Positions 3 through 51,428 of a stretch of 64,000 nt of DNA are shown here, one piece after another; the stretch's first letter is position 1; every line of letters begins with the position of its first letter. Made by a program: the position numbers and the translations under genes. Source of the DNA: a virus; IMG/VR virus record IMGVR_UViG_3300009553_000022, positions 2,630 to 66,629 of that record, one strand, 5' to 3'. The notes beneath the pieces are model-generated. The model worked only from the letters and a program-made list of their open reading frames with translations, made no database searches and was not told the origin of the DNA.

Positions 3-3000
3 ACAGCCCGGGTATTGGATGCTCGCGGTGTTGGTAGCGCGGCGTTTGATGCGGCTTCTGAACTCGGCAAAGGCGCGGCGCATGGCGGAGCGTACGGCGC
101 CGCATTGGGAGCCGGCACAGCCGAAACCAGCGAGGAACGAGCGCACGCGATCGGCGGGGGTATGGCCCTCGGTGCCGCGGGGCGCGTGGGCATGCGCTAC
201 CTTCCTGCAGGCCGCGCGCACAAGATCGCTCAGATGCAGGCGAACGACCTCGCGTCGTTGTTCGAGCGGTTGGAAGGCCAGGGAACTCGTCCGGAGCTGC
301 TGGACAAGCTGCCGTCTCACGCAGCCGACACACTGGCGGCGTACACTGCGGCCGTCGACCCCAGCCTAAAAGTTACTTTGCACGATGACGCCGGATTCGC
401 CGCTGCCGCCCCTGAGCAACCGAACGCCGCCGCGTTTTACAACCCGAAGACCCACGAGGTCGTTCTGAACCTCGACCGCCTGGGGAGTGCCACCGGCCAC
501 GAACTCGGGCACGCTCTGATGTCTGCCCGCAAGGTGGACGGTGAGGCGCGTCTGGCGATTGATTCCGCTCTCGGCACGGACGGCGTTCTGGCTGCGGCCC
601 GCGAATACGCCGGCCAGTTGGTCGACAACGACCTGAAACGCCAGCCCCCGCCGCTCCCCGGGCAGCCCCCGCCACTTCCGCAGGCTCGCGAGCAGCTCAT
701 TGCGAACAAGATTGCACAGCTGACGCAGGCGCATGGCGGCGACGGCTGGGTGTACTCGGAAATTGTCGCAGACGCAGCGAAGAACCAGATCACACCTGAC
801 CTGTATAAGAATACGCTCCGGCCCTCGATGGCGAAGACCGTGCTGGAAGCCCTGGGCGCCAAGGCCCGCGGGGATCTGGCCGGCATGCTGCCGCCTGGCG
901 CGTTGTTTAGCGACGCTCGGATCTACGGCGGCGACATCGCCAAGATGCTGCAAACGCATCTCCGCGAATCTCACCGCGAAGGCATCAAGCCCACGACCGC
1001 GAAAGAGGAAGGCGTCAACGTCCCGTCTGATCTGCTCGGTAAGCACGCTTCTGTTCCAGTTGGCTCGGATGCCGTGAAGGTTGAAGGTAGCGCGATTGTC
1101 CCCCGGACTCCCGCGGAGGTTCGGCAGATTGAGAAGGCGAGACAGCAGGCTGTGAAGCCGATTGTCGACCAGCAGCCGAAGCCCCAGGGCGACGTAAGTC
1201 CCGAGGTGGCTCCGCGTGTTGGTTCGGATGGTACGGTCGAAGTTCGCGGCACCAAGATCAGCGATCAGATCGCCGGACTCCCGCAGTTTTCGGACGAAGC
1301 CAAACGCATCGCGAAGCAGGTCGAGGATGTGATTGCCGGCGGGCAAGGCGGAATTATTCGGACGTGGTACCAAGCCCTCGGCTCCAGCAAGGTCGGCACC
1401 TGGGCGAAGTCTGTACGTAAGAAGCTCGGCAACTGGTCTGTTTCGCAGGTCGACATTGCGCCGTACGAGTTCCATATTTCCGACGCCAACAACGTTCTTG
1501 TGCGTGGAGTATCCCGGACTGCGGCGGAGCAGAAGCTCGCCCGTTGGCAGCAGGAAGGAAAGCTCGACAAGCTCTGGGGCGGTGACGCGGACGCCTTCAG
1601 AAAGGATCTCCACACCTACCTGCAGAACCACGCCCAAGGACTGCGCGGGGCCGTCAACCTCGGCGACGAAGTCCGGGACGCATTAAATCTATTTGTCACT
1701 GGGCAGGCGTCGAAGTTCAAAGACGCGAACCCACTGCGCGCGGACGTCTCAGGCAAGGACAAGAACGGGATCATCCGCTCCATCCGCCTGGACCGCATGG
1801 CGAACCCTGAGCACGTCGAGGGCAGCCTCCCGCTCGACTGGACAAAGCAACAGCGCAATTTTAGCCCGGCGGGCGACGATCCGGTCGTTGCGGCCGCTCT
1901 CCGAACACCCGGCGGCCAGATCTTCAGCGATCGCTGGCATGGCGGCGCAATGATGCAGATCATGGACGCGGCGGGCCGGGGCGAGCTGAAGGAGCCTGCA
2001 TTTGATTTCGAGAATGTCGCGGATGGTTTCGTCACCAAAAGCGGCAAATTCTTGTCCCGCGAGGAAGCTCTGCAGCACGCGCAGGCCCAGGGGCAACTCC
2101 CGGACAGCGCCCGATTTGAAAACGGGCAGCTGGAGTCCGATGCGTTTGCGGCACAGCGCAGTTTCTCCCCGTCGTCTGACTCTTACATCGACGACGCCCG
2201 CGACGTTTTCGCGAGAGCCCCCTCGCTCCAAACGCTCCGCTTCGACCGCGGAACCGGCGAGTTGATCGATCACAAAGGGGACGTTGTTTCCGAGAACGAC
2301 CTGAAGACGTTGGCACCAGGCGTCGACATGGATCGGGTCCGTGGTGCGGTTGTCACACTGACCGCACTGCAGGAGTGGGAAGCGCGGCAGGGCAATCTGT
2401 TTTCGCAGGTCTCGCAAGCCCCTAAAGCTCCTGGCGAGCCCGTCGAAAACCGTAAGGTGTTATACGCACCGTCGAAAGACAAACTCGGTTTCTATTCCCA
2501 GCTCGAAGAGACGTTAAAAGCGATCCCGCCGAAGTCGTCTCCTGCACAGATTCGCGCCATGTTGCGGCAGGGTGTGAAGGAAAAGGGCAAGCTACTCGCG
2601 AAGCCGGTTAAGGCTGAGGAGATGCGCGATACGAAGGCGCCAGACGGGACGACGTTCGAGGAGTGGCTGAACGAGAACCCGAAGGCGACGCTCGACGAGA
2701 TCAAGTCGTGGGCGCAGGTCAACAAGACGAAGGTATACGCCAATGAAGGCGCGAATAAGATCGAGGGAGAAGAGTATACCTCTGAGCCTGAGCCCGTGCG
2801 GTTTCGCGAGGCTCATTACGTTGAGATCGCGCCTGATCATGTATCAGATCACTTCCGTCAAAAAGTCGAAGACGAGTTTCACGACCAATGGGCCGACGAG
2901 GTGCCGGAGGAAATGACCAGGCCCGAGTTTAAGGAGGAAGTTGTGCGGCGGATTGATGCTTATCTTAACGAGCATCCGGTGCGCGAATGGACCGACAACG

Positions 3001-6000
3001 AGCATGGTTACACGATCCAAGGGTCCAAGGAACAAGGGTACGCTGTATTTACTCCGGACGGCGATGAAGTCGACTCGGAGATCACTCGCTTTAGTCGCGC
3101 AGTCGACGCTGCCAACGAGCACGCGTTTGACGCCATGTCCACGACTGAGCGGCACGACGACGAGATCAGCACAGAGCCCCAGTACAGCTCTTATGTCCTC
3201 GGCAAAGCCGGGGAGAACTACCAGGAAGTTGTTTTTGAAGTGCCGGGGAACCGTCCTGGTTCTGGCTTCGAGAGCAGCCATTTCAGCGGCAACCCGGATT
3301 ACATTTTCCATGCCCGCACGAGTGAATATAAGACGCCGAAGGGCGAGAAGGTTTTCCTGATCGAGGAGACGCAGAGCGATCTGCACCGCGGGGGACGGGA
3401 AGAGGGGTACAAAGATTCGTCAATCGAGCGAAAACGCAAGCAGCTGTCAAACGCCTTCGATGCCCGTAGAGACGCGATCTCCCAGGCGAACCAGATAACA
3501 CCAACTGCTGACTTACAGAAGCTCTTCGCGGACGATCCTGAACTTACTCGCATAAAGGCTGAGAGAGAAAAGCTCCACGAGTCGCAAGGCAAGCTCCCCG
3601 ACGCGCCACTCAAAAAATCCTGGTCCGAGTTCCTTCTGAAGTGGGGTCTTCGTGAGGCTGCGGCTCGCGGCGCGCAGTACCTGGGTTGGGTGACTGGTGG
3701 GCAGACTCAAGAGCACTACAATTTGCGGAAGGAAGTCAAAGAACTGTCCTGGGATGGGAAGACACTCAAGGCGGATCTTGTCCGTGGCGGACAGAGGTCG
3801 TTTCCGGCGGCCAACGAGGAAGAGGTCGCGAAGTACGTTGGGAAGGGCGTTGCGAGTCGGTTGGTAACGGCTGACCTGAAGCCCGAGCCGGCGGTTATGA
3901 CTGAAGCGCAGTGGGCGCAAAAATTCCCTGAGCAGTGGGCAGAATACGCGAAGTCGCACAGTATTGGGCGAGATCCGTCTAGTGCACACTGGAAAGCGGT
4001 TGAACCAGACGGGGCGTCTAGCGGAGTATTTACTTCGCAAGAAGCCGCGGATTTGTGGTCGAAGCGCGTGTCTAGTACGCGATCTGTATCCGGCGGAGGT
4101 CTTGAGATGGGCGGCGAGTGGGCGGTCAACATGTACGACAAGGCCCACGTCAATTTTCTGGAGGATTACGCGAAGTCGCAGGGTTGGCTGAAGGCTCTCG
4201 GCGCGGAGCAGAGCAAGCCCGACCCGAACCAGCTCGAACTCGCCGGCATGCCCGAGCACAAGGCGAAGCGGGCTGTTCGAGACGTGGAGATCATTACGAA
4301 GCATGCCGGATCGGGTCCTTCTGGGGCACGCGGCGAAGGCGAAACTGCGAAGGTTCACGCGATCGCAATCCCGCCCGAGGTTAAGGATCACATCCTCCAC
4401 GAGGGGCAGCCGATGTATTCGCCTAGCAGCGAGCCCGCGGCTCCCGACACGCTGACGGCTCTGCACAACACTTCTGGCGCTGGCATTCTGGCCGCGGCTC
4501 GTATGGGCGGCATTCCCGCCCCGTCGGTGGCTGTTATGAAGCGGGAGCACCCGTTCTCGTCCTTCGGTGACATCACGCTGATCGCGCCGCGCGACGTTGT
4601 GGATCCTGAACACGGCACAAAAGTTTTCGACGCGGACGCGTACACGCCGCGCCAGCCCAAGCCGGAATACGGTCGGATTCGCTCAGCAGCAAAGAGCCAA
4701 CTCCGTAAGCAGTTCGAGGCCGAGGTCAAGCGCCTGGACGATTACAGCAACTTCCACGAGGTCCTTGAGGCATTGGGCGGACAGTACCGGACGCCGAGCA
4801 AGGAAAAGGCTATTGAGGCGATGGGCAACTCTCCCGCCGTTGTGTCTAAGTTCCTTGCCGATACCGGCGGCAACCCGGCTGACGTCTACCGCCGACAGTC
4901 GAAGCCCGGTGCGTCCTCGAACGAGTATTCGACCGAACTCCTTAAGGAACGGGAAACGCTCCGGAAGATTCTGTCGGGCCGGCAAGACGAGTTTAATAGC
5001 TGGGCCGAGAACATCCTGGACCCCGTATTCGGTCAGCCCTTTGTGAAGGTCGGCGGCCAGCGCCTTCCCTACACCGCGGAGAATGTCGCCCGGGCGATGA
5101 CCGGCAAGACCCGAGCCCAAGAGGGCGGGATGACCTACGGCCCCGGGCACGCCCGCGCGTCTGCCTCCCGCCAGTTCGGGTCAGTTCCGGAGATGCACAA
5201 AGCCGAGGGCAACCTCGTCTCTGACGACGATTTCCAGAAGCACCGCGACGCGCAAGAGCCGATCATGGACGCGTACCGGCGGGCGGCGGTCGGAGCAAAT
5301 AACATCGAGCACCGGAGCACCTGGGATAACCTCGACGACGCGATGCGCGTTCTTGGGATGTACTTGCGCGGCGGCAAGAGCGACAGCCCGGCCCGGATGG
5401 CCGCGGCGCTGCGCCGCCACGGGTTCGGAGACGACCCGGAAGTCGTCCAGGCGGCGATCAAAGCTGCAGGCTCCCTCCGCGATGCTCCGACGGAATACTT
5501 CGAGGCCAAGCCGCAACGGGAGGTCAAACTTCCTGAGTTTGTCGGCGCTGTAGTGCCTGAAAAAACCTCTCCGCGGGTCCTGGCTGTGCTGGAGAAATAC
5601 GGCATCCAGGTCGAGACATACAAGAACAGCGAAGACCGGCAAGCTGCGACTGTGCGCCTTCGCGAGAAGCTGGCTGGCGAAGGGCAGGCTGTTCATTTCG
5701 CACCATCAGAGGATGAAGGCTTCTTTTACAAAGCCGATCCGGATCTTCCTGGGCACGATCCTAAATACCGTACCCCGGAGCCTGAAAGGGACCTGCCGGA
5801 CGCCTCAACTGCTCGGAATGCCGGACTGATTCATTACTGGCAGGCTCCAAGCGGGAACCTGTACGACGCCGACCGTTATCATTGGAAATGGGCACGGGAG
5901 CATGTGACAGGCGATGCCGCCGACGCAGTCGAACGGATGATCCGCAATGGCTGGACTAGGATCAACGTCTCGGCTGGTGACAGGATGGTTCTTGTCCAAG

Positions 6001-6251
6001 GCCGGCCGAGTCGAGCCCAAAGGGCGAGGTTAGAAGATTTGGGGTTCAGTGTCGAGCTGCCGGTAATGGACGACAGCGGCATGCTTTTGATTGAGTCGAC
6101 GGGTGAGTTCGGCCAACCCCCGGAATTTTCGCCCAGCGGCACAGCCCCGCAGAAGGGCGGTAAACGTCCCGCCCTCCGCGAGCCTAGGGAACACCTGGCA
6201 CCAGGTCCGGAGCAACCGGACGACGAAGAGAATGAAACCCACATACAATGA
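3..6251 (+). CDS. Giant polyvalent / internal virion (ejection) protein, 5' partial
   Basis: Over 2078 aa, frame open to the window edge. Zincin-like HELGH near the N-terminus, several domains typical of phage large polyvalent proteins (IEETQSD, LHN..GG.P.PS.A..FGDI), and recurrent [FY][SA]P[SA] linkers. Confidence 0.7.
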   Translation, partial: TARVLDARGVGSAAFDAASELGKGAAHGGAYGAALGAGTAETSEERAHAIGGGMALGAAGRVGMRYLPAGRAHKIAQMQANDLASLFERLEGQGTRPELLDKLPSHAADTLAAYTAAVDPSLKVTLHDDAGFAAAAPEQPNAAAFYNPKTHEVVLNLDRLGSATGHELGHALMSARKVDGEARLAIDSALGTDGVLAAAREYAGQLVDNDLKRQPPPLPGQPPPLPQAREQLIANKIAQLTQAHGGDGWVYSEIVADAAKNQITPDLYKNTLRPSMAKTVLEALGAKARGDLAGMLPPGALFSDARIYGGDIAKMLQTHLRESHREGIKPTTAKEEGVNVPSDLLGKHASVPVGSDAVKVEGSAIVPRTPAEVRQIEKARQQAVKPIVDQQPKPQGDVSPEVAPRVGSDGTVEVRGTKISDQIAGLPQFSDEAKRIAKQVEDVIAGGQGGIIRTWYQALGSSKVGTWAKSVRKKLGNWSVSQVDIAPYEFHISDANNVLVRGVSRTAAEQKLARWQQEGKLDKLWGGDADAFRKDLHTYLQNHAQGLRGAVNLGDEVRDALNLFVTGQASKFKDANPLRADVSGKDKNGIIRSIRLDRMANPEHVEGSLPLDWTKQQRNFSPAGDDPVVAAALRTPGGQIFSDRWHGGAMMQIMDAAGRGELKEPAFDFENVADGFVTKSGKFLSREEALQHAQAQGQLPDSARFENGQLESDAFAAQRSFSPSSDSYIDDARDVFARAPSLQTLRFDRGTGELIDHKGDVVSENDLKTLAPGVDMDRVRGAVVTLTALQEWEARQGNLFSQVSQAPKAPGEPVENRKVLYAPSKDKLGFYSQLEETLKAIPPKSSPAQIRAMLRQGVKEKGKLLAKPVKAEEMRDTKAPDGTTFEEWLNENPKATLDEIKSWAQVNKTKVYANEGANKIEGEEYTSEPEPVRFREAHYVEIAPDHVSDHFRQKVEDEFHDQWADEVPEEMTRPEFKEEVVRRIDAYLNEHPVREWTDNEHGYTIQGSKEQGYAVFTPDGDEVDSEITRFSRAVDAANEHAFDAMSTTERHDDEISTEPQYSSYVLGKAGENYQEVVFEVPGNRPGSGFESSHFSGNPDYIFHARTSEYKTPKGEKVFLIEETQSDLHRGGREEGYKDSSIERKRKQLSNAFDARRDAISQANQITPTADLQKLFADDPELTRIKAEREKLHESQGKLPDAPLKKSWSEFLLKWGLREAAARGAQYLGWVTGGQTQEHYNLRKEVKELSWDGKTLKADLVRGGQRSFPAANEEEVAKYVGKGVASRLVTADLKPEPAVMTEAQWAQKFPEQWAEYAKSHSIGRDPSSAHWKAVEPDGASSGVFTSQEAADLWSKRVSSTRSVSGGGLEMGGEWAVNMYDKAHVNFLEDYAKSQGWLKALGAEQSKPDPNQLELAGMPEHKAKRAVRDVEIITKHAGSGPSGARGEGETAKVHAIAIPPEVKDHILHEGQPMYSPSSEPAAPDTLTALHNTSGAGILAAARMGGIPAPSVAVMKREHPFSSFGDITLIAPRDVVDPEHGTKVFDADAYTPRQPKPEYGRIRSAAKSQLRKQFEAEVKRLDDYSNFHEVLEALGGQYRTPSKEKAIEAMGNSPAVVSKFLADTGGNPADVYRRQSKPGASSNEYSTELLKERETLRKILSGRQDEFNSWAENILDPVFGQPFVKVGGQRLPYTAENVARAMTGKTRAQEGGMTYGPGHARASASRQFGSVPEMHKAEGNLVSDDDFQKHRDAQEPIMDAYRRAAVGANNIEHRSTWDNLDDAMRVLGMYLRGGKSDSPARMAAALRRHGFGDDPEVVQAAIKAAGSLRDAPTEYFEAKPQREVKLPEFVGAVVPEKTSPRVLAVLEKYGIQVETYKNSEDRQAATVRLREKLAGEGQAVHFAPSEDEGFFYKADPDLPGHDPKYRTPEPERDLPDASTARNAGLIHYWQAPSGNLYDADRYHWKWAREHVTGDAADAVERMIRNGWTRINVSAGDRMVLVQGRPSRAQRARLEDLGFSVELPVMDDSGMLLIESTGEFGQPPEFSPSGTAPQKGGKRPALREPREHLAPGPEQPDDEENETHIQ

Positions 6252-9666: not shown

Positions 9667-10189
9667 GCTTTTCCACCTTCGCGCGATACCAATCGAACCA
9701 CTGCGCCGCGGAGCCTTTGAAGCCCGCGGTTTTTGCGTTTTCGAGGTACTCGTAGATTTCCCCCGACAGGCACGCGCGGAGTAAATAAAACCATTTTGGG
9801 TCATACATGACCGCCAGCTTGTCGGGCCAACAGAGCGCCGACGGCTTTTCTCCACACATGCTCGCCAAGTGCCGCGAGTGAAACAGGCACAGCCGGTACG
9901 CCTGCAAGGCTCTTTGCTCGGCTTCCAACTCTCCCCGGCCTACAACTACCCGGTACCAGAACTTCACCAGCCTCCGCACCAAGCGGCTGCCGCCGACGGG
10001 GTGCAAGCGCCCCTCCTGGCCGTCAATGTTCGGTTGACCCCAGTAACCCCAGTCGTGGACGACAATGCAGAGCCATTCAAAGCCCCGCGGCCAGCACCCC
10101 TGGAATTTCCGCCAGGCCAGGGCAACCGTAACCGGGTGCCAAGCGAATTGGTGGACGCCAAAGAGAAGGCTACGAGTTCCCAGAGTCAT
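9647..10189 (-). CDS. HD-domain phosphohydrolase
   Basis: H...VVHDWG...H...HSRH...PDKL motifs. Confidence 0.6.
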   Translation of the reverse strand: MTLGTRSLLFGVHQFAWHPVTVALAWRKFQGCWPRGFEWLCIVVHDWGYWGQPNIDGQEGRLHPVGGSRLVRRLVKFWYRVVVGRGELEAEQRALQAYRLCLFHSRHLASMCGEKPSALCWPDKLAVMYDPKWFYLLRACLSGEIYEYLENAKTAGFKGSAAQWFDWYRAKVEKLTSRPS

Positions 10190-12031: not shown

Positions 12032-12399
12032 TTCACCGCGAAAGTGTCCGCGAACGATGCGCGTGCCTCCCGTTCGCGTATATAACGCAGCGCGGTCTCG
12101 TGCCGGGTCTCGCCCTCGAATTTCTGCGCTACGGCATACAGAAGCTCGTTATACTGCTCCTGGGCTTTTGACGACTCCGCGGGGCCGGGCGGGGGTTCGT
12201 CCACCGTCCTGTAATTGCAGTCAACGCGGGCGCGGATCTCGTCGAGAAGCTGGCCGGTCGTCGCGTTTCCAAGCCAGGGCTGCGACCAAATCTCTTCGAG
12301 GATCTCCGCGAAGGCTTCCGCCAGCGCAGTGTCCATTACTTTGTGCTTCGTCCACGGCTTACACCATGCCTGCGCAGCTTTCTCCCGTGCCAGTTGCAT
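12001..12399 (-). CDS. hypothetical protein
   Basis: ATG 14 nt after the upstream stop. Confidence 0.55.
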   Translation of the reverse strand: MQLAREKAAQAWCKPWTKHKVMDTALAEAFAEILEEIWSQPWLGNATTGQLLDEIRARVDCNYRTVDEPPPGPAESSKAQEQYNELLYAVAQKFEGETRHETALRYIREREARASFADTFAVKWARNVEGGK

Positions 12400-13703: not shown

Positions 13704-13735
13704 TACAGTGTCAGACATCAGCACAAGCTGTACCT
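13704..13735 (-). promoter_or_regulatory. sigma-54-type promoter P1 (degenerate)
   Basis: AGGTACAGCTTGTGCT (GG-N10-GC) followed by GATGTCTGACACTGTA; intergenic. Confidence 0.55.
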
Positions 13736-16594: not shown

Positions 16595-16608
16595 GGGTTA
16601 GCGTGTTT

Positions 16609-16640
16609 CACAGTGTCAGACAAGAGCAAACGATGTGCCA
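16609..16640 (-). promoter_or_regulatory. sigma-54 promoter P2
   Basis: TGGCACATCGTTTGCT, near-perfect -24/-12, followed by CTTGTCTGACACTGTG. Confidence 0.8.
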
Positions 16641-19743: not shown

Positions 19744-21117
19744 TTAGGATCCGGAGACTTTCTCCGAAATTGCAGGCGCCGATTTTTCCAAGCGAATCGT
19801 CGCGTACTGGATCAGGCCGTCGGCGCGTGTGAGTAAGTTTTCCGCCGAAAGGGTCATCGCCATGATCTCCTTTGCTTGCTTCTTGGTCGACTTGGCCTCG
19901 CGGGCTTGCTCCTTAGCTTCAGCCAGGATCCGCTTTTTCAGCTTCGGATCGCTAGTCTGATTTGCTTTCACGGTGCCAGACTGTAGCAGACCCTGTGCCA
20001 CGTTGTTTGACATGGCGACGTAGCTGTCCGCGAAAACTGCTTCCAACTTGGTTAGCGCGATGTCGCAGCAGCCCAAAACTTGATCGGGGGTTAAGACGTC
20101 TTTCAGCGCCTCAGCGACAAGCGCCGGCTCGTGAACTGACCGATCCCGCTTCCTGGCGCACGCCTTGATGACAACCTCCTGGCCAGGGGCGACCTCCACG
20201 CGAAGCACGCCGTTAGGTTCCGCCTGGGCTAACTCTAACGCTCTCGCCTTTATCCCACTCTTGCTCTCTTCCAGGAGAGTTTCGAGGCGGTCGAGGATGT
20301 AACACGCCTTGGCGACGTCTTCCGGCGTGTGAATTTCTATCGCGCTGAACGTCGACGGCATCGGCAGCGGCTCAGCCTTCTGAACTGCGACCGCTGCGGT
20401 CTGAACGAGTGCGGGACAACTCCCGGCCCGCGAACAAAAATCGCAATACGGATTGACGTTGAGCGTCGGGTTTGGTTGCTGCGCGCTGCGAATGACCCCT
20501 TGAACGGCTGTAAATATATCATATAACTCCTCCCGGCGAAAGCTGGCCGCGGTCGTTTTGTGCAGTTTCGGCTGCACGAACAGCACACCCAGCTTGCCGA
20601 GCTTCGGGAATTTGTGGAACGATCCGAGCGCGTACGCCTTGCCCTGGTAGTTGACTGCGGCAGGTGGTACGGGTATCCAACCGAACTTATGATCAATCAA
20701 GACGCCCGTCGTTCCATCCTTTAAAATGATCAAAACGTCGAGGTGCCCGGCTGTCAGCTCTTGTCCCGTCGGGTCCGGAACTGTCACCCTGATTTCGTTG
20801 TGGATCTCCTCCCAACCTGCCGCGATCCAACGGTCCATTTCCTTGCATGAGAATGCGAGGAGCGTGTAGTCCTCGTCACTGATCGCGAACTCCCCCGACT
20901 GACTTAATTCGTCCAACGCTGTCAGTGTACGCGTGTGCCGCCCCTCCTTCACACGATCGACCAAAACGTCGGCGAGTTCATGCAAACGGGTACCTTCTCG
21001 GGACGCCTCGGACTCGCCGTCGTTAGGCAAGTAGCCGGGACAAGCTGCATAGGCGTTGAGTTTCGACGGCCCGTAGCGGTGATGCGTTCGGGCGGCGTGG
21101 TTAGGTTGTTCGTTCAT
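19744..21117 (-). CDS. DUF2800 / Cas4-like PD-(D/E)XK exonuclease
   Basis: PSK...CPG, GTRLHE, GHLD..IDHKFG, Q..AYA, C..C...CP. Confidence 0.85.
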   Translation of the reverse strand: MNEQPNHAARTHHRYGPSKLNAYAACPGYLPNDGESEASREGTRLHELADVLVDRVKEGRHTRTLTALDELSQSGEFAISDEDYTLLAFSCKEMDRWIAAGWEEIHNEIRVTVPDPTGQELTAGHLDVLIILKDGTTGVLIDHKFGWIPVPPAAVNYQGKAYALGSFHKFPKLGKLGVLFVQPKLHKTTAASFRREELYDIFTAVQGVIRSAQQPNPTLNVNPYCDFCSRAGSCPALVQTAAVAVQKAEPLPMPSTFSAIEIHTPEDVAKACYILDRLETLLEESKSGIKARALELAQAEPNGVLRVEVAPGQEVVIKACARKRDRSVHEPALVAEALKDVLTPDQVLGCCDIALTKLEAVFADSYVAMSNNVAQGLLQSGTVKANQTSDPKLKKRILAEAKEQAREAKSTKKQAKEIMAMTLSAENLLTRADGLIQYATIRLEKSAPAISEKVSGS

Positions 21118-23325: not shown

Positions 23326-23847
23326 GCTATTTTTGGGTTTATTTTTGCGACTGCGGCGCGTGTTCTGCGCCTGCTCACAAAGTGGGATCCAGCAGCAGTT
23401 ATCTGGGCAGTAGTTTCCGTTGACCTCCCTGCGCTCTATGGTGAGGTCTTCCCGGAAACCGGACCCACGAGCCCACTGAGCGAAAGGAATGAATTCCTCC
23501 CACTCAGGGCAAATCGTGATCCCCCGGCCTCCGTAGCTGTGGAAATTAGGGTCCTTGGGGTTGCGGCAACGCTGCCGCATGTTGGTCCAAACCTTGTGCA
23601 GGGGCGTCTTTGTCTCGCCGTGAACGCGGAACCGGGTCGCGTTAAGCCGGCCTTTTTCTCGGGCGGCGCAGCCGCAAGACGTCGTATTGCCCGCGCGGAG
23701 GTTGTCGAACCTCGCCACAAATTCGGTTCCGCAGTCGCACCGCACTTGCCGGTAACGCGTGGGGAACTGCTGCCCGTGCGTGGCGCCGGGGCCTAGAATG
23801 ACAACCCGCCCGTAACGCTCGGGATCCGATGTTTGTCTAGGTCTCAC
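23107..23847 (-). CDS. HNH-like homing endonuclease, read through in frame into the histone-fold domain
   Basis: CDCG, SCGC, W..MRQRC, YGGRGITICPEW, IER..VNGNY.P.NC.W; GTG at +4 of promoter P3. Confidence 0.75.
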   Translation of the reverse strand: MRPRQTSDPERYGRVVILGPGATHGQQFPTRYRQVRCDCGTEFVARFDNLRAGNTTSCGCAAREKGRLNATRFRVHGETKTPLHKVWTNMRQRCRNPKDPNFHSYGGRGITICPEWEEFIPFAQWARGSGFREDLTIERREVNGNYCPDNCCWIPLCEQAQNTRRSRKNKPKNSMRKPQFLVVSKVKARAKARGKRVGADFLALLDRFVMERIEAATEVHNGGRKTLDASVAGFVGIKPRGSVFGE

Positions 23848-23876
23848 AGCGTCAGACATGAGCAGACGCCGTGCCA
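23845..23876 (-). promoter_or_regulatory. sigma-54 promoter P3, head of the replication operon
   Basis: TGGCACGGCGTCTGCT followed by CATGTCTGACGCTGTG. Confidence 0.8.
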
Positions 23877-24123: not shown

Positions 24124-24372
24124 ATGAGCCACCAACATACATGGGTCCTGGCGGTCCTGGAAGAGGGCCGCGTCAGCCAACACATCGAAATCCGGTCGTT
24201 CCCGTCCCGCCGCGAGGCGCTTCTCGCCCTGGGCAGTTACGGCGAGGCCTGGCCCGGAGAGTCGCAGCAACGGTTCCTAGACGCCGTAAACGGCGATCAA
24301 CTGGACGTTGCCGAAGTCGTCGCGGGGAACAACTTCACTCTGACCTGGACAATCAAATCGACCGCCCTATGA
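24124..24372 (+). CDS. hypothetical protein
   Basis: ATGA overlap with the integrase. Confidence 0.55.
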   Translation: MSHQHTWVLAVLEEGRVSQHIEIRSFPSRREALLALGSYGEAWPGESQQRFLDAVNGDQLDVAEVVAGNNFTLTWTIKSTAL

Positions 24373-25514
24373 GCAGCCGATGGGAAACAACCAAAGTGCC
24401 GGGCATCCGCCGCGACAAAGCGACTGGGATGCTTTACCTGAACAAGAGCGTCAACGGTCGAGTCTACGGCGAGAGCCTGAAGACGACGGACCTCGCGGTC
24501 GCGAAGCAGAAGTTTTTCGCACGCCTCGCGGAGCTGGCAAGCGAGCCCCGCCCGATAGCCCCGAAGCCCGAGCGGTATTCCCTGGGTGAGATCCTCGACA
24601 CTTACGCCGCCCGGCTCGACGCGGAGCACGGCTCCCTCGACCCGAAAACCATCAAGCGGAAGAAGTGGACGCTGTCGACGATCGTCTCGACCTGGGGCGA
24701 AGTGCCGGTCCTCAAGACCCGCGGCGTCGGTAGCTTCCGCAGTCTCCCCGCGAAGCGCGTCAGCTATGACGACCTCCTGGCGTGGCGGAAGCATTTCATC
24801 GACCCGAAGGGCGGCAACTTCAAGCCGTCGTATTTCAACCTCGTCCGCGATGTCCTCGAAGAGGTGTTTGACCTGGCTGTCGAGTTCGGGCAGATCCGCG
24901 AGAATCCCGTTTGTCGTCTCAGCGTCGCAGCGGTGCCCCGCGCGCATTACGTCCTGCCGACTGGTGAACAGTGGGCGGCGATGCTGGCCAAGATCGACAC
25001 GGCGACCGAGGTCGGTCAGAACTGCCGCGACTTGCTCGAAGGGCTGTCGTTGACGGGACTGCGGATCAGCGAGGCGTATGCTCTGCGCGTCGAGATGGTT
25101 GACCTGGAAGCCCGCGAGGTTCGCTTGCCGGCCGCGATTGTCAAAGGCCGTAACGGGCGAAGGAACGGACGGACGATCGATCTTATTCCCGAAGCTCACG
25201 CACTCATGACGCGGCTTGTCGCGACCGCTGGCCCGGACGGGCTGATCTTCAAAGCCGAGGGACGACGCACATTGACGCGCATCTGCAAGGAAGCTGGCTG
25301 GACAGCGAAATTTACTCTCCACTCGTGCCGACATTTCTTCGCGACGCGGATGCTTGAATCGGGCGTGCCGGTACAGACCGTTGCGGAATGGATGGGACAT
25401 CAGGACGGCGGCACGCTGCTACTGAAGACCTACACGCATCTTTGCCGGCGGCATGGGAAGGCGGCTGCGGCGAAGGTTACGATTTTCCCGGGCGAGAAGA
25501 AGGACGCAGTCTAA
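24369..25514 (+). CDS. int: Tyrosine recombinase / integrase
   Basis: TGLRISE, K, HSCRH, MGH, KTY catalytic residues. Confidence 0.92.
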   Translation: MSSRWETTKVPGIRRDKATGMLYLNKSVNGRVYGESLKTTDLAVAKQKFFARLAELASEPRPIAPKPERYSLGEILDTYAARLDAEHGSLDPKTIKRKKWTLSTIVSTWGEVPVLKTRGVGSFRSLPAKRVSYDDLLAWRKHFIDPKGGNFKPSYFNLVRDVLEEVFDLAVEFGQIRENPVCRLSVAAVPRAHYVLPTGEQWAAMLAKIDTATEVGQNCRDLLEGLSLTGLRISEAYALRVEMVDLEAREVRLPAAIVKGRNGRRNGRTIDLIPEAHALMTRLVATAGPDGLIFKAEGRRTLTRICKEAGWTAKFTLHSCRHFFATRMLESGVPVQTVAEWMGHQDGGTLLLKTYTHLCRRHGKAAAAKVTIFPGEKKDAV

Positions 25515-25710: not shown

Positions 25711-25932
25711 TTACGCGGGGTTCGAGTATCGGCCCAGGTCAATCTCCACGCGTTCGCGGACAGTGTCGCAATCCTTGTAAATTGCGGGGATCGACACGGT
25801 CATGCGAACATCCTCGCCGCACTCTGGCCAACCAGGGTAGTGGTCCTCGGCCGAAAGCGTCGCGTCCCACTTCTTTAGCAGTGCGGCCAGTTCGGCCCGG
25901 AATTCGATTTCAACTTGCTGTGATGTCTGCAT
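25711..25932 (-). CDS. hypothetical protein
   Basis: Downstream in the activator operon. Confidence 0.55.
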   Translation of the reverse strand: MQTSQQVEIEFRAELAALLKKWDATLSAEDHYPGWPECGEDVRMTVSIPAIYKDCDTVRERVEIDLGRYSNPA

Positions 25933-26269
25933 ATTTCTGAACGTCCTTCTTCCGCACTAAATACGGCCGGAATGGCTTCAACGAAGCGGTGCAGACTAGG
26001 CACTCCTCCCGTCGGCCTGTGGCTGAACCCTGTTCGTATTCTGGCGGCCCATCAAGAGAGCGGTGCTCCCGGCCCCTTCGGAATTTGTAATTGTCGACGA
26101 TCGCCATTCTCAAGCCGATCACGTACCCGGTGCCGGACTCGCACAGCGGCGTCGGCGAAGCCTGCCGGACACACCCCTGGCCGTGAACGTAGTCACTCAA
26201 AAAGCGTTCGGAGCAAGTCATGCCGTAGGCCGGCCCGTGTTCGATTTTCTGGCCAATGAAATAGTTCAA
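25910..26269 (-). CDS. hypothetical protein
   Basis: TTGA overlap with the activator stop. Confidence 0.5.
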   Translation of the reverse strand: MNYFIGQKIEHGPAYGMTCSERFLSDYVHGQGCVRQASPTPLCESGTGYVIGLRMAIVDNYKFRRGREHRSLDGPPEYEQGSATGRREECLVCTASLKPFRPYLVRKKDVQKYADITAS

Positions 26270-27153
26270 GCTACCTCCTTCAACGTAATCCCAAGAGCTG
26301 CCAGCTTCGCACGGCCCCCATCCCGGTTGACGCCCAGGGCCTCACTAAACTGCGTGACGTTCCCAGCCTCAGCCCAGACAGCCCGCAAGGCGGCCTCGTC
26401 GAGGCATGCGTCCGGTATGGTTCCCAGGAGCAGCAACCGCGACAGCCAGCCGAACAGCTCCCGACAGTTCCCTGTCCAGGGCCGCGTCTGCAGGTCGAGC
26501 AATATCTCCGGCGAGAGCACGGGAACCGGAAGCTTATGCCTCTTCGCTTCGGCTGCGAGGAACTGGGCCGCGAGGGCTCCCAGGTCTTCCGGCCGTTCCC
26601 GCAATGGTGGAATCTCCAGGGTGAAGGCGGCGAGGCGATGATAGAGGTCGGCGCGGAGCTTGCCGGACTTGATTGTGGCGGCTGGGTCGACATTCATCGC
26701 CGCGACGATCCGCACGTCGACAAATTCGTCTCGGTCGCTGCCCAGGGAGCGCACCCGACTATCCTGGAGGGTCCGCAAGAGCTTCGACTGCGCCTGAGCC
26801 GGCATCTCCGACAGCTCGTCGAGGAACAGCGTCCCGCCAGATGCCGCGCGGAACAGGCCCAGCCGCGACGTTACAGAGCCCGTATACGCGCCCCGCTGCG
26901 CGCCGAACAGCTCGCTTTCAATTAAATCGGCAGGAAGCGCCGCACAGTTCAGCGAAACCTTCGGCCCCGCGGCGCGGGGGCTATTGCCGTGGATCAGGTT
27001 CGCGAAGACCTCCTTGCCCGTCCCCGTCTCACCCAGGACGAGAACAGGGACATCAAATTTAGCGAGATGCACAGCCTTACGGGCAAGTGCCTGAATGGCC
27101 GGACTAGCAAAGATAGGGACCAAGCGAGTTTCATAAAGGTGCCGTCCTGGCAA
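26266..27153 (-). CDS. Sigma-54-dependent transcriptional activator (bEBP AAA+ plus Fis-type HTH, no sensor domain)
   Basis: GETGTGKE, LNCAA, ESELFG..RGAYTGS, GGTLFLDE, QSKLLR, RADLYHRL, PPLRER, WTGNCREL; C-terminal GNVTQFSEALGV..KL. Confidence 0.95.
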   Translation of the reverse strand: MPGRHLYETRLVPIFASPAIQALARKAVHLAKFDVPVLVLGETGTGKEVFANLIHGNSPRAAGPKVSLNCAALPADLIESELFGAQRGAYTGSVTSRLGLFRAASGGTLFLDELSEMPAQAQSKLLRTLQDSRVRSLGSDRDEFVDVRIVAAMNVDPAATIKSGKLRADLYHRLAAFTLEIPPLRERPEDLGALAAQFLAAEAKRHKLPVPVLSPEILLDLQTRPWTGNCRELFGWLSRLLLLGTIPDACLDEAALRAVWAEAGNVTQFSEALGVNRDGGRAKLAALGITLKEVA

Positions 27154-27162
27154 GGTTGATGG

Positions 27163-27327
27163 TTAAAGGACGACCTGCTCGCGGACCCGAACGCCGTGGC
27201 GCCGCAGGCTCTCCGACAGTTGGCTGGCGAAGGCATCGGCGTCCTGCCGGGTGTAAAACGTGCCACACTCCCCCCAACCGTCCCACCGGCCAGGGCCTAT
27301 TTTAGTCTCAACAACGTATTGCTTCAT
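27163..27327 (-). CDS. hypothetical 54-aa protein, first gene of the activator operon
   Basis: MKQYVVETK...; ATG just after a -10 element. Confidence 0.55.
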   Translation of the reverse strand: MKQYVVETKIGPGRWDGWGECGTFYTRQDADAFASQLSESLRRHGVRVREQVVL

Positions 27328-27334
27328 GCATGAC

Positions 27335-27415
27335 ACGGTAGCACCATGCACTACGTTGTCAAACGCACGAACACAAAACAATACATTGACAACTCCCGTG
27401 GGCAGCCGATAAACC
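27335..27415. promoter_or_regulatory. Divergent sigma-70 promoters
   Basis: Minus: TTGACA (27362-27357)-N16-TACCGT with TGn. Plus: TTGACA (27386-27391)-N18-TAAACC (weak -10) before ATG 27422. Confidence 0.55.
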
Positions 27416-27421
27416 TGTGGT

Positions 27422-27724
27422 ATGAAAAGCAGCGTACGACAAAAGCCTGACCAAAAAATAGATCGGACGAGACCCGAGCAGTTCGCGGTGCGAATCACGG
27501 ACAACCTGCGGTCGCGTGTCGAGGCCGTCGCCGCAGCCTTATCCAACGAAGCGCAAACGACTACCATATCCGACGTTGCCCGACGCTGTCTAGTCGGGCA
27601 TTTGCCGGTGCTGGAGCGTGAACTCGGGCTTGTTGAAAACCGGCCGCAGTCGGCGGAAACGGATACAACGCAGTGGGTCGCGGAAGCGAAAAAGCGCGCA
27701 ACTAAAGCCAATGCCAAAGTCTAA
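27422..27724 (+). CDS. Ribbon-helix-helix (Arc/CopG-like) regulator, candidate repressor
   Basis: EQFAVRI strand, then helices TDNLRSRVEAVA and TISDVARRCL. Confidence 0.65.
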   Translation: MKSSVRQKPDQKIDRTRPEQFAVRITDNLRSRVEAVAAALSNEAQTTTISDVARRCLVGHLPVLERELGLVENRPQSAETDTTQWVAEAKKRATKANAKV

Positions 27725-27744: not shown

Positions 27745-28146
27745 TTGCAGAGGCACCGCGGGACGGTATGGATACGGTGCATGCAGATAATCGGCAACCA
27801 GTTTGAACTTTTTTGGGTGAGCGACTCGGACGGATCCGGCTGGACCCTTAGCCGGGCGCTACAAACGCACCTCGGGCTGTCGCATGTCAGCTCGTACGAG
27901 GATGTGCTGGCCGCGGTGCATCCCAGGGACCAGCGGCGCGTCCGGCAGCAACTCGAATCGGCCCGCAGCGCACGGGACGGCATTACGCTGAAGTTCAAGG
28001 TTTGGCTGCCAAGCAACCAGGTTTTTGCCCAGGCGAGGCTAGTCGGCTGGCCGCGGTTCATAAACGGGAATACCTTCCTGGGCCACATCGGTTTTTGGCG
28101 TATCAAACTCCCATCGGCCCCGCCCGATATCGGAGATCTCAACTAA
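27745..28146 (+). CDS. Stand-alone PAS-domain protein
   Basis: FWVSD.DG...S......LG......VHPRDQRRV...FKV...G..G matches a PAS_3-type pattern; start may be ATG 27781. Confidence 0.65.
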   Translation: MQRHRGTVWIRCMQIIGNQFELFWVSDSDGSGWTLSRALQTHLGLSHVSSYEDVLAAVHPRDQRRVRQQLESARSARDGITLKFKVWLPSNQVFAQARLVGWPRFINGNTFLGHIGFWRIKLPSAPPDIGDLN

Positions 28147-29161: not shown

Positions 29162-29212
29162 GTCAAATTGTGTCTGACAGAGTTTGACAAAGTAACCTAA
29201 GCGGATTAGGAT
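29161..29212 (+). promoter_or_regulatory. sigma-70 leaderless promoter with three tandem boxes
   Basis: Boxes at 29161, 29171 and 29181; TTGACA-N17-TAGGAT-N6-ATG. Confidence 0.75.
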
Positions 29213-30019: not shown

Positions 30020-30909
30020 TGAAAGCTGTTGATTTATTCGCGGGCGCTGGCGGGTTCTCCACTGGCGCGAAGATGGCCGGCGTCGATGTCGTATGGGCGG
30101 CGAACCACTGGCGCGCAGCCGTCGACTGTCATGCGGCGAATCACCCCAGCGTCGCGCACATGTGCCAGGACCTGCATCAAGCCGACTGGAATCAGGTCCC
30201 AGCGCACGACGTCCTGCTGGCGTCTCCGTCCTGCCAGGGGCATGCCAAGGCCCGCGGGAAGGAGCGGCCCCACCACGACGCCGCGCGGTCTACCGCCTGG
30301 GCCGTCGTCTCCTGCGCCGAGGTTCACCGCCCGGAATTTGTCGTTGTCGAGAATGTCCCCGAGTTTCGGCGCTGGCTCCTTTACCCGGCGTGGACGCAGG
30401 CGATGAACGCCCTGGGCTACTCCACCGCGGAGCACGTTATCAACGCCGCCGACCACGGCGTCCCTCAATCCCGCGTGCGCCTGTTCGTCGTATGCTCGCG
30501 GAGCAAGGCGCCCCTGCAGCTGAAGTTCCAGCCGAAGGCCCACGTCCCGGCTAGCTCGTTCATCACAGCCCCAGGGACGACTCCCGTCAGCTCGCTGTGC
30601 GCCCGTTCCCAGGCCCGCATAGCAAACGGCCGCGCGGAGCACGGCAGCCGGTTTCTCATGGCTTATTTTGGCACGGAGAAGGGCGGGCGGAGCCTTAACG
30701 CACCCCTCGGCACCGTCACCACGCGCGACCGGTACGCCCTGGTCGACGGCGACAACTGCCGGATCCTGACCGTTGACGAGTACCGGCAGGCAATGGGGTT
30801 CCCCGACTACCAGCTGCCGGCCAACAAGAAGCTCGCGAAGCACCTGCTCGGCAACGCGGTTTGTCCGCCTGTGGCCCGCGATATCCTCCTGCAACTGGCT
30901 AAGAACTAG
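30019..30909 (+). CDS. DNA cytosine-C5 methyltransferase
   Basis: DLFAGAGG, SPSCQG, VENV, PQSR.R, GNAV. Confidence 0.92.
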   Translation: MKAVDLFAGAGGFSTGAKMAGVDVVWAANHWRAAVDCHAANHPSVAHMCQDLHQADWNQVPAHDVLLASPSCQGHAKARGKERPHHDAARSTAWAVVSCAEVHRPEFVVVENVPEFRRWLLYPAWTQAMNALGYSTAEHVINAADHGVPQSRVRLFVVCSRSKAPLQLKFQPKAHVPASSFITAPGTTPVSSLCARSQARIANGRAEHGSRFLMAYFGTEKGGRSLNAPLGTVTTRDRYALVDGDNCRILTVDEYRQAMGFPDYQLPANKKLAKHLLGNAVCPPVARDILLQLAKN

Positions 30910-30914
30910 GCCTT

Positions 30915-30976
30915 TGTGAGACACGGTAAAATAATGTCAGACAACGTTTGACAACGTAACCGAACCGGCTTAGGAT
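30915..30976 (+). promoter_or_regulatory. sigma-70 promoter with tandem boxes
   Basis: TGTCAGACA-A-CGTTTGACA; TTGACA-N17-TAGGAT. Confidence 0.75.
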
Positions 30977-38367: not shown

Positions 38368-38727
38368 TCAGGGGACGATGATGGGAGAAGACGCCTGGGC
38401 CTTCGGCGCGCGGCGGCGGCGCTGGAGAATGGCCTCGCACCACGCAGCCGCGACAGCAGCCACCTGGACGAGTTCTGTATACAGCTGGCGGTCTCGCTCC
38501 TCCTCGGTCGTCAGGACGCCGTTGCGGTAGTCACACAGCGCACGGGCGACTTCCCCGTTCTCCTCCGCGAGGACAGTGTAGCGCGCCTCGTCCAAGACGT
38601 TGGGGGCCGCACAGGTCCAGGCAAATTTGCCTGACTTGCATAGAACCTCCTGGCGCTCGCGCTCCGCGATGATGTCGTTCAGGACGGCTAGGCGAGCCGC
38701 GGCTCCGAGTTTGTCAGTGTCAGTCAC
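38368..38727 (-). CDS. MazG-like nucleotide pyrophosphohydrolase
   Basis: ER.RQ, LAEENGEVA, ELVQVAAVA..W.E; GTG at +4 of P4. Confidence 0.7.
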   Translation of the reverse strand: MTDTDKLGAAARLAVLNDIIAERERQEVLCKSGKFAWTCAAPNVLDEARYTVLAEENGEVARALCDYRNGVLTTEEERDRQLYTELVQVAAVAAAWCEAILQRRRRAPKAQASSPIIVP

Positions 38728-38777
38728 AGTCCCAGACATGAGCAGCCGGTGTGCCAACGTTTGACGCTGTCAGACAG
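38725..38777 (-). promoter_or_regulatory. sigma-54 promoter P4 with upstream boxes
   Basis: TGTCTGACAGCGTCAAACGT-TGGCACACCGGCTGCT-CATGTCTGGGACTGTG. Confidence 0.75.
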
Positions 38778-40767: not shown

Positions 40768-40811
40768 TGTCTGACACTGTGGCACGGCGTCTGCTCATGT
40801 CTGGAGGTGTG
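40768..40811 (+). promoter_or_regulatory. sigma-54 promoter P5
   Basis: TGTCTGACACTG-TGGCACGGCGTCTGCT-CATGTCTGGAGGTGTG. Confidence 0.8.
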
Positions 40812-41015
40812 AGCAAGCAACTAACACGAAGCAGCGTCAAAGCAATGAAGCCGGCCGAGCAGGCCGCGGCGTACTTCGCTGACAACACGGCGATGTATGT
40901 AACCAACGATCGGCCCGGCCCCAGCCTGCGAGCGCAAGAAGCGTTCTGGAACGACTGGCAGGAGGCCCTGGACACCTGGAAGGCGACGCTGCCTCGCGAC
41001 CGTTTCTCCGTATGA
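40809..41015 (+). CDS. hypothetical protein
   Basis: GTG at +4 of P5. Confidence 0.55.
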   Translation: MSKQLTRSSVKAMKPAEQAAAYFADNTAMYVTNDRPGPSLRAQEAFWNDWQEALDTWKATLPRDRFSV

Positions 41016-44557: not shown

Positions 44558-44611
44558 TGTCTGACATTGACTGAAACCGTGGCACGGTAGCTGCTCTTGT
44601 CTGACACTGTG
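44558..44611 (+). promoter_or_regulatory. sigma-54 promoter P6
   Basis: TGGCACGGTAGCTGCT (44580-44595) followed by CTTGTCTGACACTGTG; upstream box at 44558. Confidence 0.8.
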
Positions 44612-44836
44612 AAACGTCTACTGACACAAGTTCGCATCTGGTTGATGCGGTATCACGCGGAGTTCCTCCTGCAACGCGTTCTCGCCGAAATCGATCGGAT
44701 CGATGCGATCCAATACGCGAACATTCGTCGCGATCGCGAAATCATTCGTCTTTCCCAAGAAGCCGACAAACTCGAAGCCTCCCTTGACGCGGAGAGCCGA
44801 CGCCGCAAACGCGCCTTCTTGGAACTCCCGGACTAG
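44609..44836 (+). CDS. hypothetical coiled-coil protein
   Basis: GTG at +4 of P6. Confidence 0.55.
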   Translation: MKRLLTQVRIWLMRYHAEFLLQRVLAEIDRIDAIQYANIRRDREIIRLSQEADKLEASLDAESRRRKRAFLELPD

Positions 44837-51166: not shown

Positions 51167-51209
51167 GTTTGACACGTTGGCACGGAGTCTGCTCCTGTCT
51201 AACGCTGTG
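51167..51209 (+). promoter_or_regulatory. sigma-54 promoter P7, upstream of scaffold/capsid genes
   Basis: GTTTGACACGT-TGGCACGGAGTCTGCT-CCTGTCTAACGCTGTG. Confidence 0.8.
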
Positions 51210-51428
51210 AAACTAATGCCAATAGATCACGAAGCGGAGCGTCGTGTATTATCGACGCTCCCGAATTCTCCCGCCCATGCCGTGATCCACAACGCGCTGG
51301 CTCGTGATATTGAGGCAGCTCGGTCCAAGTTGGAAACCTGCAGCAGCGCCGAGTTGTGCCAGATTCAGGCTGAAATTTTAGTCCGCCGGCAGCTCGTCGG
51401 CTGGCTTGCAACGACCCACAAACGCTAA
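51207..51428 (+). CDS. small protein between portal and scaffold
   Basis: GTG at +4 of P7; helical. Confidence 0.55.
   Translation: MKLMPIDHEAERRVLSTLPNSPAHAVIHNALARDIEAARSKLETCSSAELCQIQAEILVRRQLVGWLATTHKR

Follow-up and report, generated by a model that had tools for sequence, protein, structure and literature searches.

The DNA analysed here (the window, 64,000 nucleotides) covers bases 2630-66629 of a 66,629-bp IMG/VR virus record (IMGVR_UViG_3300009553_000022), which is classed as linear and has a CheckV completeness of 76%. The window carries on its minus strand a gene for a bacterial enhancer-binding protein (bEBP), an AAA+ activator of sigma-54 transcription, and contains seven predicted sigma-54 promoters that share an extended sequence. 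The positions of the main features are collected in Table 1.

The bEBP gene and its protein

The gene probably begins at TTG 27123 rather than at TTG 27153. In the homologous gene of a sister phage, found on a metagenome locus (L251), an in-frame TGA lies four codons 5′ of the GTG start, and this GTG aligns with codon 11 of the window gene (TTG 27123), so that the protein is probably 285 amino acids (aa) long and its AAA+ core is preceded by about 5 residues. In the public annotation (P0001, 268 aa) an internal GTG serves as the start; the sister has a GTC at this codon, and its use would cut away a confidently modelled helix. Whichever start is used, there is no sensor domain. At most 15 residues, probably 5, precede the AAA+ domain, and residues 1-10 are modelled as disordered with a predicted local distance difference test (pLDDT) score of 40. 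This bears out a first-pass annotation of the same DNA, which had noted an open reading frame (ORF) with barely any residues before AAA+, and it places the protein in the sensor-less class of bEBPs, those with no N-terminal regulatory domain. Short N-termini of 40 residues or fewer before the core are found in 21 rows of the alignment used to judge motif rarity (the query and its 119 best database matches, 120 rows). The stretch between the small ORF upstream and the bEBP start includes a conserved sequence shared by the two phages, CCAGGACGGCA and then ATGAA (window 27124-27150, minus strand; L251 about 9995-10027); its ATG is out of the bEBP frame, and the frame differs between the two phages.

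Pfam Sigma54_activat (PF00158) matches residues 16-179, starting from profile position 4 (E 4.7e-59, 199.3 bits vs a cut-off of 20.2), and AAA_lid_14, the bEBP lid domain, matches residues 185-259. The NCBIfam models of many named bEBPs (NorR, NifA, NtrC, PspF) are matched in their central part only and all far below their equivalog cut-offs, and residues 14-253 can be aligned with the solved structures of FleQ, NifA, NtrC1, ZraR and PspF. An AlphaFold model built from a 41-row alignment has a mean pLDDT of 90.1, and its AAA+ part fits best on NtrC4 (3dzd; Z 30.6, root-mean-square deviation (rmsd) 1.9 Å over 245 residues), with FlrC, NtrC1, FleQ and PspF next. In the 41 rows G41, E42, G44, G46, K47 and E48, D112 and E113, R167, R173 and R187 as well as R231 are invariant, and R185 is nearly so (conserved in at least 90% of the rows); Walker A and B, arginine fingers and sensor II are thus intact, as the first reading of the letters had it.

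The L1 loop, correctly spelled GAYTGS in that reading (residues 88-93), retains the aromatic residue and the threonine of GAFTGA-type loops as Y and T. Across the 120 rows GAFTSA is the most frequent form (45), followed by GAFTGA (33), GAFTDA (11), GAFSGA (9), GAFTNA (6) and GSYTGA (4), while GAYTGS, GAYTGA and GSFTGA occur three times each and other loops account for the last three rows. Two cellular proteins share GAYTGS with the query, and the loop of HrpS, an active sensor-less bEBP, is always GAYTGA according to an excerpt of PMC3105312. Given these loops and the 21 short N-termini, both the GAYTGS loop and the missing sensor are ordinary variants, and the idea that the loop is a notable alteration did not hold. 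No other protein in the 120 rows has AAMN in place of AATN, nor WTGNCREL in place of WPGNVREL.

The C-terminal tail may be called a putative degenerate Fis-type helix-turn-helix (HTH). Its last 32 residues (GNVTQFSEALGVNRDGGRAKLAALGI) match the Fis-type HTH of the homologues column by column, following GN..(A)A..LGI.R.TL..KL...GI, with L273 and G274 in nearly invariant columns. The T and L that usually follow the conserved R are both replaced by G in the window protein and by A in the sister, and the linker between lid and HTH is about 10 residues long vs 20-50 in relatives. Modelled alone, the last 55 residues form three helices (pLDDT 76.8), and Foldseek, given the tail alone, placed the TyrR DNA-binding domain on top (probability 0.99, E 0.26), with Fis and the DNA-binding domains of NtrC4 and NtrC1 also listed. 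When the C-terminal 68 residues were searched by themselves, no protein other than that of the window was retrieved. The short-linked Fis-type HTH proposed at first therefore agrees with the column alignment and the linker length, but finds no support in Pfam. Comparison with the sister gene gave nonsynonymous divergences (dN) of 0.14 for the core, 0.41 for the lid, 0.48 for the linker and 0.30 for the HTH; that the HTH is under more constraint than the linker and is modelled as a three-helix unit argues against the loss of DNA specificity.

Predicted sigma-54 promoters in the phage genome

The pattern TGGCAC-N5-YTGCW occurs eight times in the window vs 0.14 expected, and none of 100 shuffles reached this number. 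Seven of the eight matches extend into a common 45-bp sequence (...AAACG TGGCAC N5 YTGCT ca TGTCTGACaCTGTGAAAC); the eighth (42886) lies inside a NUDIX gene without the extension and is probably due to chance. The consensus of the seven phage promoters reads [T/C]GGCAC-N5-YTGCT followed by GTCTGACaCTGTGAAAC, and GGCACN5YTGCTNNNGTCT is found seven times in the whole 66.6-kb record with a reversed control of zero. All seven are oriented with their downstream genes. Those at 23861, 19985 and 16625 lead a leftward replication block, those at 40780, 44580 and 51178 a rightward packaging and virion block, and three of the promoters lie within 10 kb of the bEBP gene. Across three phage records (the window, the sister phage and a related fragment described below) GG and GC stand at the canonical spacing in 14/14 instances.

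A search for enhancers compared 9-mers in the 260 bp upstream of these 14 promoters. No distal enhancer was found; only the family TGTC[A/T][A/G]ACA, to which the palindrome described below belongs, was prominent, in 10/14 regions vs a maximum of 9 among random controls.

The GTG contained in the conserved CTGTGAAAC opens an ORF of 68-246 codons at 5/7 promoters (23847, 38727, 40809, 44609 and 51207), which implies leaders of a few nucleotides only. The element takes the form CTGTTGAAC in L251, where the genes begin 30-40 nt further on. As a search key, the extended promoter returned 120 genome and 40 viral matches, nearly all of them chance hits or ordinary sigma-54 promoters, and the 35-kb fragment G001 alone among them is related.

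Relatives and co-inheritance

Only one close relative of the bEBP was found among 5.8 billion proteins (P0002, 69% identical). Its DNA is locus L251, where the bEBP is 68-69% identical and the neighbourhood is as in the window, with genes for a PAPS reductase, DUF932, a PAS-domain protein, a ribbon-helix-helix (RHH)-like protein, the 54-aa ORF, the bEBP, an integrase and a helicase. The 20.9 kb of L251 contain three promoters of the form CGGCAC-N5-YTGCT-gGTGTCTGACACTGTTGAAC, all of them syntenic with those at window positions 23861, 19985 and 16625. A search of IMG/VR with the capsid protein yielded six relatives. One of these, G001 (capsid 96% identical), has four promoter matches, all on the plus strand, and no bEBP within the fragment. 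In the five distant ones (capsid 46-56% identical; completeness 100, 77, 33, 15 and 8%) Sigma54_activat and the promoter pattern were each found in 0/5. As both are present in the window and L251 and absent from the five distant relatives, activator and promoter set appear to be a joint trait of the lineage. Loss of the bEBP from relatives that keep the promoters, an outcome which the first-pass annotation would have counted against its own proposal, is not seen in L251, which keeps both.

A quick IQ-TREE analysis of 120 AAA+ cores grouped the query with P0002 (SH-aLRT 100%) on a stem of 0.55 changes/site, with the neighbouring branches unresolved; the phylogeny suggested earlier as a check thus sets the phage proteins apart as a clade. 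The best cellular identity is about 50%, with 51-52% in species-representative genomes and best identities of 41-50% in 401 sampled Verrucomicrobiota genomes, and IMG/VR holds no close relative once the phage's own record is left out. Between the window and the sister gene dN is 0.23 and the synonymous divergence (dS) 1.83, which is saturated. The intact gene also occurs in contigs of four other soil or rhizosphere runs, where it differs by T160A and one synonymous change. Because the protein forms a long-branched clade of its own and is under purifying selection, it is not a recent broken capture, and the recent truncated host capture that had been envisaged as a refutation finds no support in these data.

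Matches in isolated phages (tblastn, 66 records) were all below 60% identity, with bacterial contigs filed as phage in the top rows. The bEBP encoded by a further locus (L252, 64% identity over 87 residues) is of the ordinary cellular kind, having GAFTGA and a domain upstream. Relatives of the capsid protein were not found as prophages in genome contigs, nor in any of the 401 sampled Verrucomicrobiota genomes.

The bEBP operon and its neighbours

The operon consists of the 54-aa ORF, the bEBP gene and two small ORFs, in this order, and contains no extended sigma-54 site. Its sigma-70-like promoter was read from the sequence and was missed by a strict sigma-70 promoter scan; in the sister phage, TGcTACAAT stands 5 nt ahead of the ATG that opens its 54-aa ORF. 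That the promoter lies 5-7 nt from this ATG in both phages (27328-27362, minus strand; L251 about 9800-9830) suggests a leaderless or near-leaderless mRNA.

The stand-alone PAS-domain protein is supported by Pfam PAS_3 (E 0.0055), by Atlas (0.97) and by a TM of 0.74-0.79. It might act as a trans sensor for the bEBP or for the RHH-like protein, for which it is a candidate only. The 54-aa and PAS proteins, both kept in the sister phage, are likewise candidates only for trans partners of the bEBP. No PspA or HrpV family member was found among the neighbours with Pfam.

Table 1. Features of the bEBP locus and of the phage genome (window coordinates)
Feature	Position	Strand	Remarks
bEBP gene	26266..27153	-	295 aa from TTG 27153; probable start TTG 27123 = 285 aa
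Walker A GETGTGKE (residues 41-48)	27010..27033	-	alignment
L1 loop GAYTGS (residues 88-93), predicted sigma-54 contact	26875..26892	-	alignment
Walker B LFLDEL (D112, E113)	26812..26829	-	alignment
Sensor I region VAAMN (T->M) and arginine-finger region RADLYHRL	26632..26706	-	alignment
Sensor II WTGNCREL (R231)	26455..26478	-	alignment
C-terminal three-helix unit, putative degenerate Fis-type HTH	26296..26397	-	helices 253-263, 266-273, 277-286; alignment and models
54-aa ORF directly upstream of the bEBP gene, same operon	27163..27327	-	41% identity in sister; no family assigned
Two small downstream ORFs (119 aa, 73 aa)	25711..26269	-	start of the first overlaps bEBP stop (TTGA); no family found
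Sigma-70-like operon promoter	27335..27362	-	TTGACA, 16 nt, TACCGT; TGc before -10; 7 nt before first ATG
Small RHH-like gene, divergent from operon	27422..27724	+	Atlas leads MetJ, CB_ParB_C, RHH_1 at 0.93-0.95; no Pfam match
Stand-alone PAS-domain protein	27781..28146	+	L251 9028-9372 (-), 53% identity; two genes from bEBP
Tyrosine integrase	24369..25514	+	convergent with bEBP operon; start inferred from L251 homologue
Extended sigma-54 promoter (23861)	23840..23876	-	before HNH-like gene and replication block; syntenic with L251 12483
Extended sigma-54 promoter (19985)	19964..20000	-	in 3′ end of DUF2800/PD-(D/E)XK gene; syntenic with L251 15681
Extended sigma-54 promoter (16625)	16604..16640	-	before Dam methylase and DNA polymerase A block; syntenic with L251 19099
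Extended sigma-54 promoter (38741)	38720..38756	-	leads short leftward unit
Extended sigma-54 promoter	40780..40816	+	head of rightward late block
Extended sigma-54 promoter	44580..44616	+	before protease, methyltransferase and terminase genes
Extended sigma-54 promoter	51178..51214	+	between portal gene and capsid gene block

A promoter-proximal palindrome

A 9-bp palindrome, TGTCTGACA, lies at -8 in the conserved downstream element of the promoters and is repeated at -38 to -48 in several of them. It is matched 30 times in the window vs 8.6 expected and 15 times in L251 vs 2.8 expected. Copies at 13709, 29171, 30935, 38768, 40768 and 44558 stand at sigma-54 promoters and at sigma-70-like promoters; those at 29171 and 30935 are placed just upstream of the -35 of sigma-70-like promoters (29184 and 30948), in the arrangement TGTCWGACA-N4-TTGACA-N17-TAGGAT. 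By comparison with the MetJ and Arc operators, we infer that a palindrome of 9 bp may be better suited to an RHH dimer than to a Fis-type HTH dimer, and the RHH-like protein encoded at 27422-27724 (+) is a candidate for its binder. In two sequencing runs (X2 and X4) the contigs skip 214 bp at window 30731-30946 and have TTAT in place; in this natural deletion variant the C5 methylase gene has lost its end, and the copy of the palindrome at 30935 is gone.

Discussion

Judged from the sequence, we consider it probable that the bEBP is the early-expressed master activator of sigma-54 transcription in a temperate SU10-like soil phage, and that it is a working although sensor-less protein. Most of the lytic programme would then probably be run through an alternative sigma factor of the host. 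The streamlined phage activator that the first-pass annotation had suggested is in keeping with a gene that is borne by a phage, lacks a sensor and shares its genome with seven extended sigma-54 promoters.

According to this model, the bEBP operon should be transcribed from a sigma-70-type early promoter. The protein would form an AAA+ ring whose GAYTGS loops engage sigma-54 in closed complexes at the seven phage promoters, and ATP hydrolysis would open these promoters to switch on the leftward replication block and the rightward packaging and virion block. Gene anatomy, fold, the enrichment, orientation and synteny of the promoter motif and its co-occurrence with the bEBP are what the analysis shows; the ATPase activity, the sigma-54 dependence, the timing and the mode of DNA binding are predictions of this scheme. 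Since the protein has no sensor domain, control would most likely depend on whether it is made at all, that is on the early promoter and perhaps on gating by the RHH-like protein at TGTCTGACA; a trans-acting partner is possible as well. In view of the negative search for distal enhancers, two roles are the most likely for the short-linked HTH: it would either tether the ring near the promoter or be dispensable, with activation occurring from solution.

One can go further and suppose that nearly the entire lytic programme (replication, packaging and virion) has been moved to the host sigma-54 polymerase, with a minimal bEBP as the single master switch and no distal enhancers. We regard this stronger version as tentative and on the whole doubtful. 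It might be realized in two ways: the short-linked, divergent HTH could hold the AAA+ ring at the promoter by docking on the proximal TGTCTGACA copies (-8 and -38 to -48), or else activation could come from a ring in solution while an RHH repressor bound to the palindromes gates the region that must melt. If it were true, these sigma-54 promoters would be of a compact, enhancer-less design, and the choice between lysis and lysogeny would be governed by a phage switch of a new type.

Several observations weigh against the bEBP being the master activator of the phage. The TTG start codon is weak and has no clear ribosome-binding site. The motifs AAMN, WTGNCREL and DLYHRL deviate in the window protein while the sister keeps the canonical forms. 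Pfam HTH_8 (PF02954) matched neither the whole protein (E<=0.01) nor its last 77 residues (E<=10), and the fold matches of the tail are not significant (none at E 0.001 with Foldseek, Z <=4.5 with VIA-align). The record encodes no Sigma54_DBD (rpoN) according to Pfam, and among the sequencing runs listed as containing the phage none is of RNA. The co-inheritance sample consists of two phages and one fragment only. Finally, the promoters are conserved from about -31 to +12, some 20 bp past the known sigma-54 contacts.

Because the conservation extends so far beyond the sigma-54 core, the sites could be recognised by some other factor. The 45-bp elements might thus merely resemble -24/-12 promoters and be read by another protein of phage or host, with the bEBP as unrelated cargo or active elsewhere, and the presence of TGTCTGACA beside the sigma-70-like promoters (29171, 30935) would fit such a reading. 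We nevertheless think it improbable: GG and GC keep their canonical spacing in every one of the 14 instances, the motif is present exactly with the bEBP clade and its close kin and missing from all five distant relatives, and none of the 66 ORFs scanned with Pfam matched an RNA polymerase or a sigma factor. Hardly better placed, though slightly less improbable, is the view that the bEBP mainly reprograms sigma-54 genes of the host, as lysogenic conversion or takeover, while bEBPs of the host serve the phage promoters. Without a sensor domain and a distal enhancer, promiscuous action from solution is conceivable, and the protein could mis-activate host RpoN genes. A bEBP devoid of DNA binding has been used as a promiscuous activator, as described in an excerpt of PMC3844500, and the promoters of Pseudomonas phage YuA are sigma-54-dependent (PMC10914365, in excerpt), and no Pseudomonas phage is among the matches to the bEBP. 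Against it, the seven dedicated promoters travel together with the bEBP gene, this gene lies in an early lytic-type operon by the switch region rather than in a moron position, and its HTH is under constraint.

That the bEBP goes back to a host regulator which the phage captured, and of which only an inactive or decaying remnant is left, seems to us very improbable. The substitutions at sensor I (T->M), in WPGNVREL and in the HTH core, the weak start codon and the lack of a Pfam HTH match are what one might expect of a remnant. However, both phages keep the reading frame open, and dN between them is far lower than dS. The AAA+ part is confidently modelled (pLDDT 90.1), the same sequence is kept in four further samples, and none of the catalytic elements Walker A, Walker B, arginine fingers and sensor II is missing.

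The proposed master activator can be compared with a few known proteins. PspF of E. coli is a sensor-less bEBP that serves upstream enhancer sites and is controlled in trans by PspA. The window protein resembles it in having the AAA+ core at the N-terminus (PspF AAA+ domain 2c9c; Z 27.6, rmsd 2.3 Å over 231 residues) and a putative HTH at the C-terminus, but is not an equivalog (NCBIfam phageshock_pspF, 201.6 bits, below the cut-off of 443.55). It differs from PspF in being borne by a phage, in its GAYTGS loop, in a much shorter linker and HTH and in that no PspA-like neighbour was found, and it is accompanied by at least seven predicted promoters with no distal sites. HrpS and HrpR of Pseudomonas syringae likewise lack a sensor domain, and the loop of HrpS also has a Y (PMC3105312, in excerpt). 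HrpR and HrpS are, however, a co-dependent pair acting at one chromosomal promoter, in contrast to the single phage gene found here, whose loop ends in S.

Phage use of sigma-54 is already known. Pseudomonas phage YuA has -24/-12 promoters before its late genes that depend on host sigma-54 (excerpt of PMC10914365, citing Ceyssens et al. 2008), and Pseudomonas phages are absent from the tblastn matches to the bEBP. Unlike YuA, the present phage encodes an activator of its own, and its promoters, known as sequence motifs alone, are predicted at both the replication and the structural modules. Htm (Gp204 of Mosigvirus AV110) is a phage AAA+ protein with a bEBP-like structure; according to an excerpt of bioRxiv 10.64898/2026.10.06.757011 it is without a GAFTGA loop and an HTH and has an altered Walker B, whereas the window protein has all canonical bEBP motifs as well as putative cognate promoters. 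Full-text searches of literature readable without subscription, most of them aimed at this question and the others at YuA and at loop variants, listed no paper on a bEBP that is encoded by a phage and has a sigma-54 promoter regulon to itself. What appears to be new is a phage that combines the activator with cognate promoters throughout its genome.

Proteins related to the bEBP as such are not confined to this lineage. PHROG phrog_7998, with no function assigned, matches the bEBP (E 2.8e-43), and 304 stretches in IMG/VR encode relatives. Among the best 79 of these 304 loci (1.07 Mb), a strict promoter match was absent from 69 and occurred once in 10, and at least two matches were found in none. 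A human-gut phage record (MT121960, L253) encodes at 19770-20684 a sensor-less bEBP-like protein of 304 aa with GAFTGA and the Walker A sequence GETGTDKE, next to a primase-like gene; MT121960 has no TGGCAC-N5-TTGCW site, even with one mismatch allowed.

Promoters of the sigma-54 type are fully silent without an activator. A phage that pairs such promoters with an always-on activator of its own would possess a tight, all-or-none lytic switch. If confirmed, the system would offer a natural minimal pair of bEBP and promoter (about 285 aa and about 45 bp) that could serve for orthogonal expression as a module, and activation that is promoter-proximal or independent of enhancers could be studied on it as a test case. 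The rpoN status of the host would also be expected to govern susceptibility to such phages.

The phage record and its possible host

With Pfam, the structural and packaging genes of the record are recognised as a portal, a major capsid and adaptor proteins of SU10 type and a large terminase, and the replication genes as DNA polymerase A, a helicase and a PD-(D/E)XK nuclease. The genes for Dam methylase, C5 methylase and a PAPS-reductase-like protein belong to modification, and there are further matches to DUF932 and to a tyrosine integrase. The phage, which is temperate, must depend on a host sigma factor. An Rfam scan of the window gave no match, and a tRNA scan found no tRNA in the window or in L251.

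L251 provides a lead to the host of the sister phage only. Beside its integrase gene, a stretch of 43 nt (12295-12337) repeats without a mismatch the 5′ half of tRNA-Val(GAC) genes and is likely the attachment site; the window contains no such tRNA-Val piece. In a search that covered species-representative genomes, at least 120 genome stretches matched these 43 nt, and the titled ones among the matches listed were all Verrucomicrobiota, mostly Chthoniobacterales/Spartobacteria. Sigma54_DBD is encoded in 5/5 Verrucomicrobiota genomes with a matching tRNA-Val that were checked.

The beginning of the window (15-6251, plus strand) is occupied by a protein of more than 2078 aa that is open at the window start. 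It contains a PBECR5 nuclease domain and has a weak match to a PHROG of 3513 positions with no function assigned; a role as a large protein of the virion or of ejection is probable.

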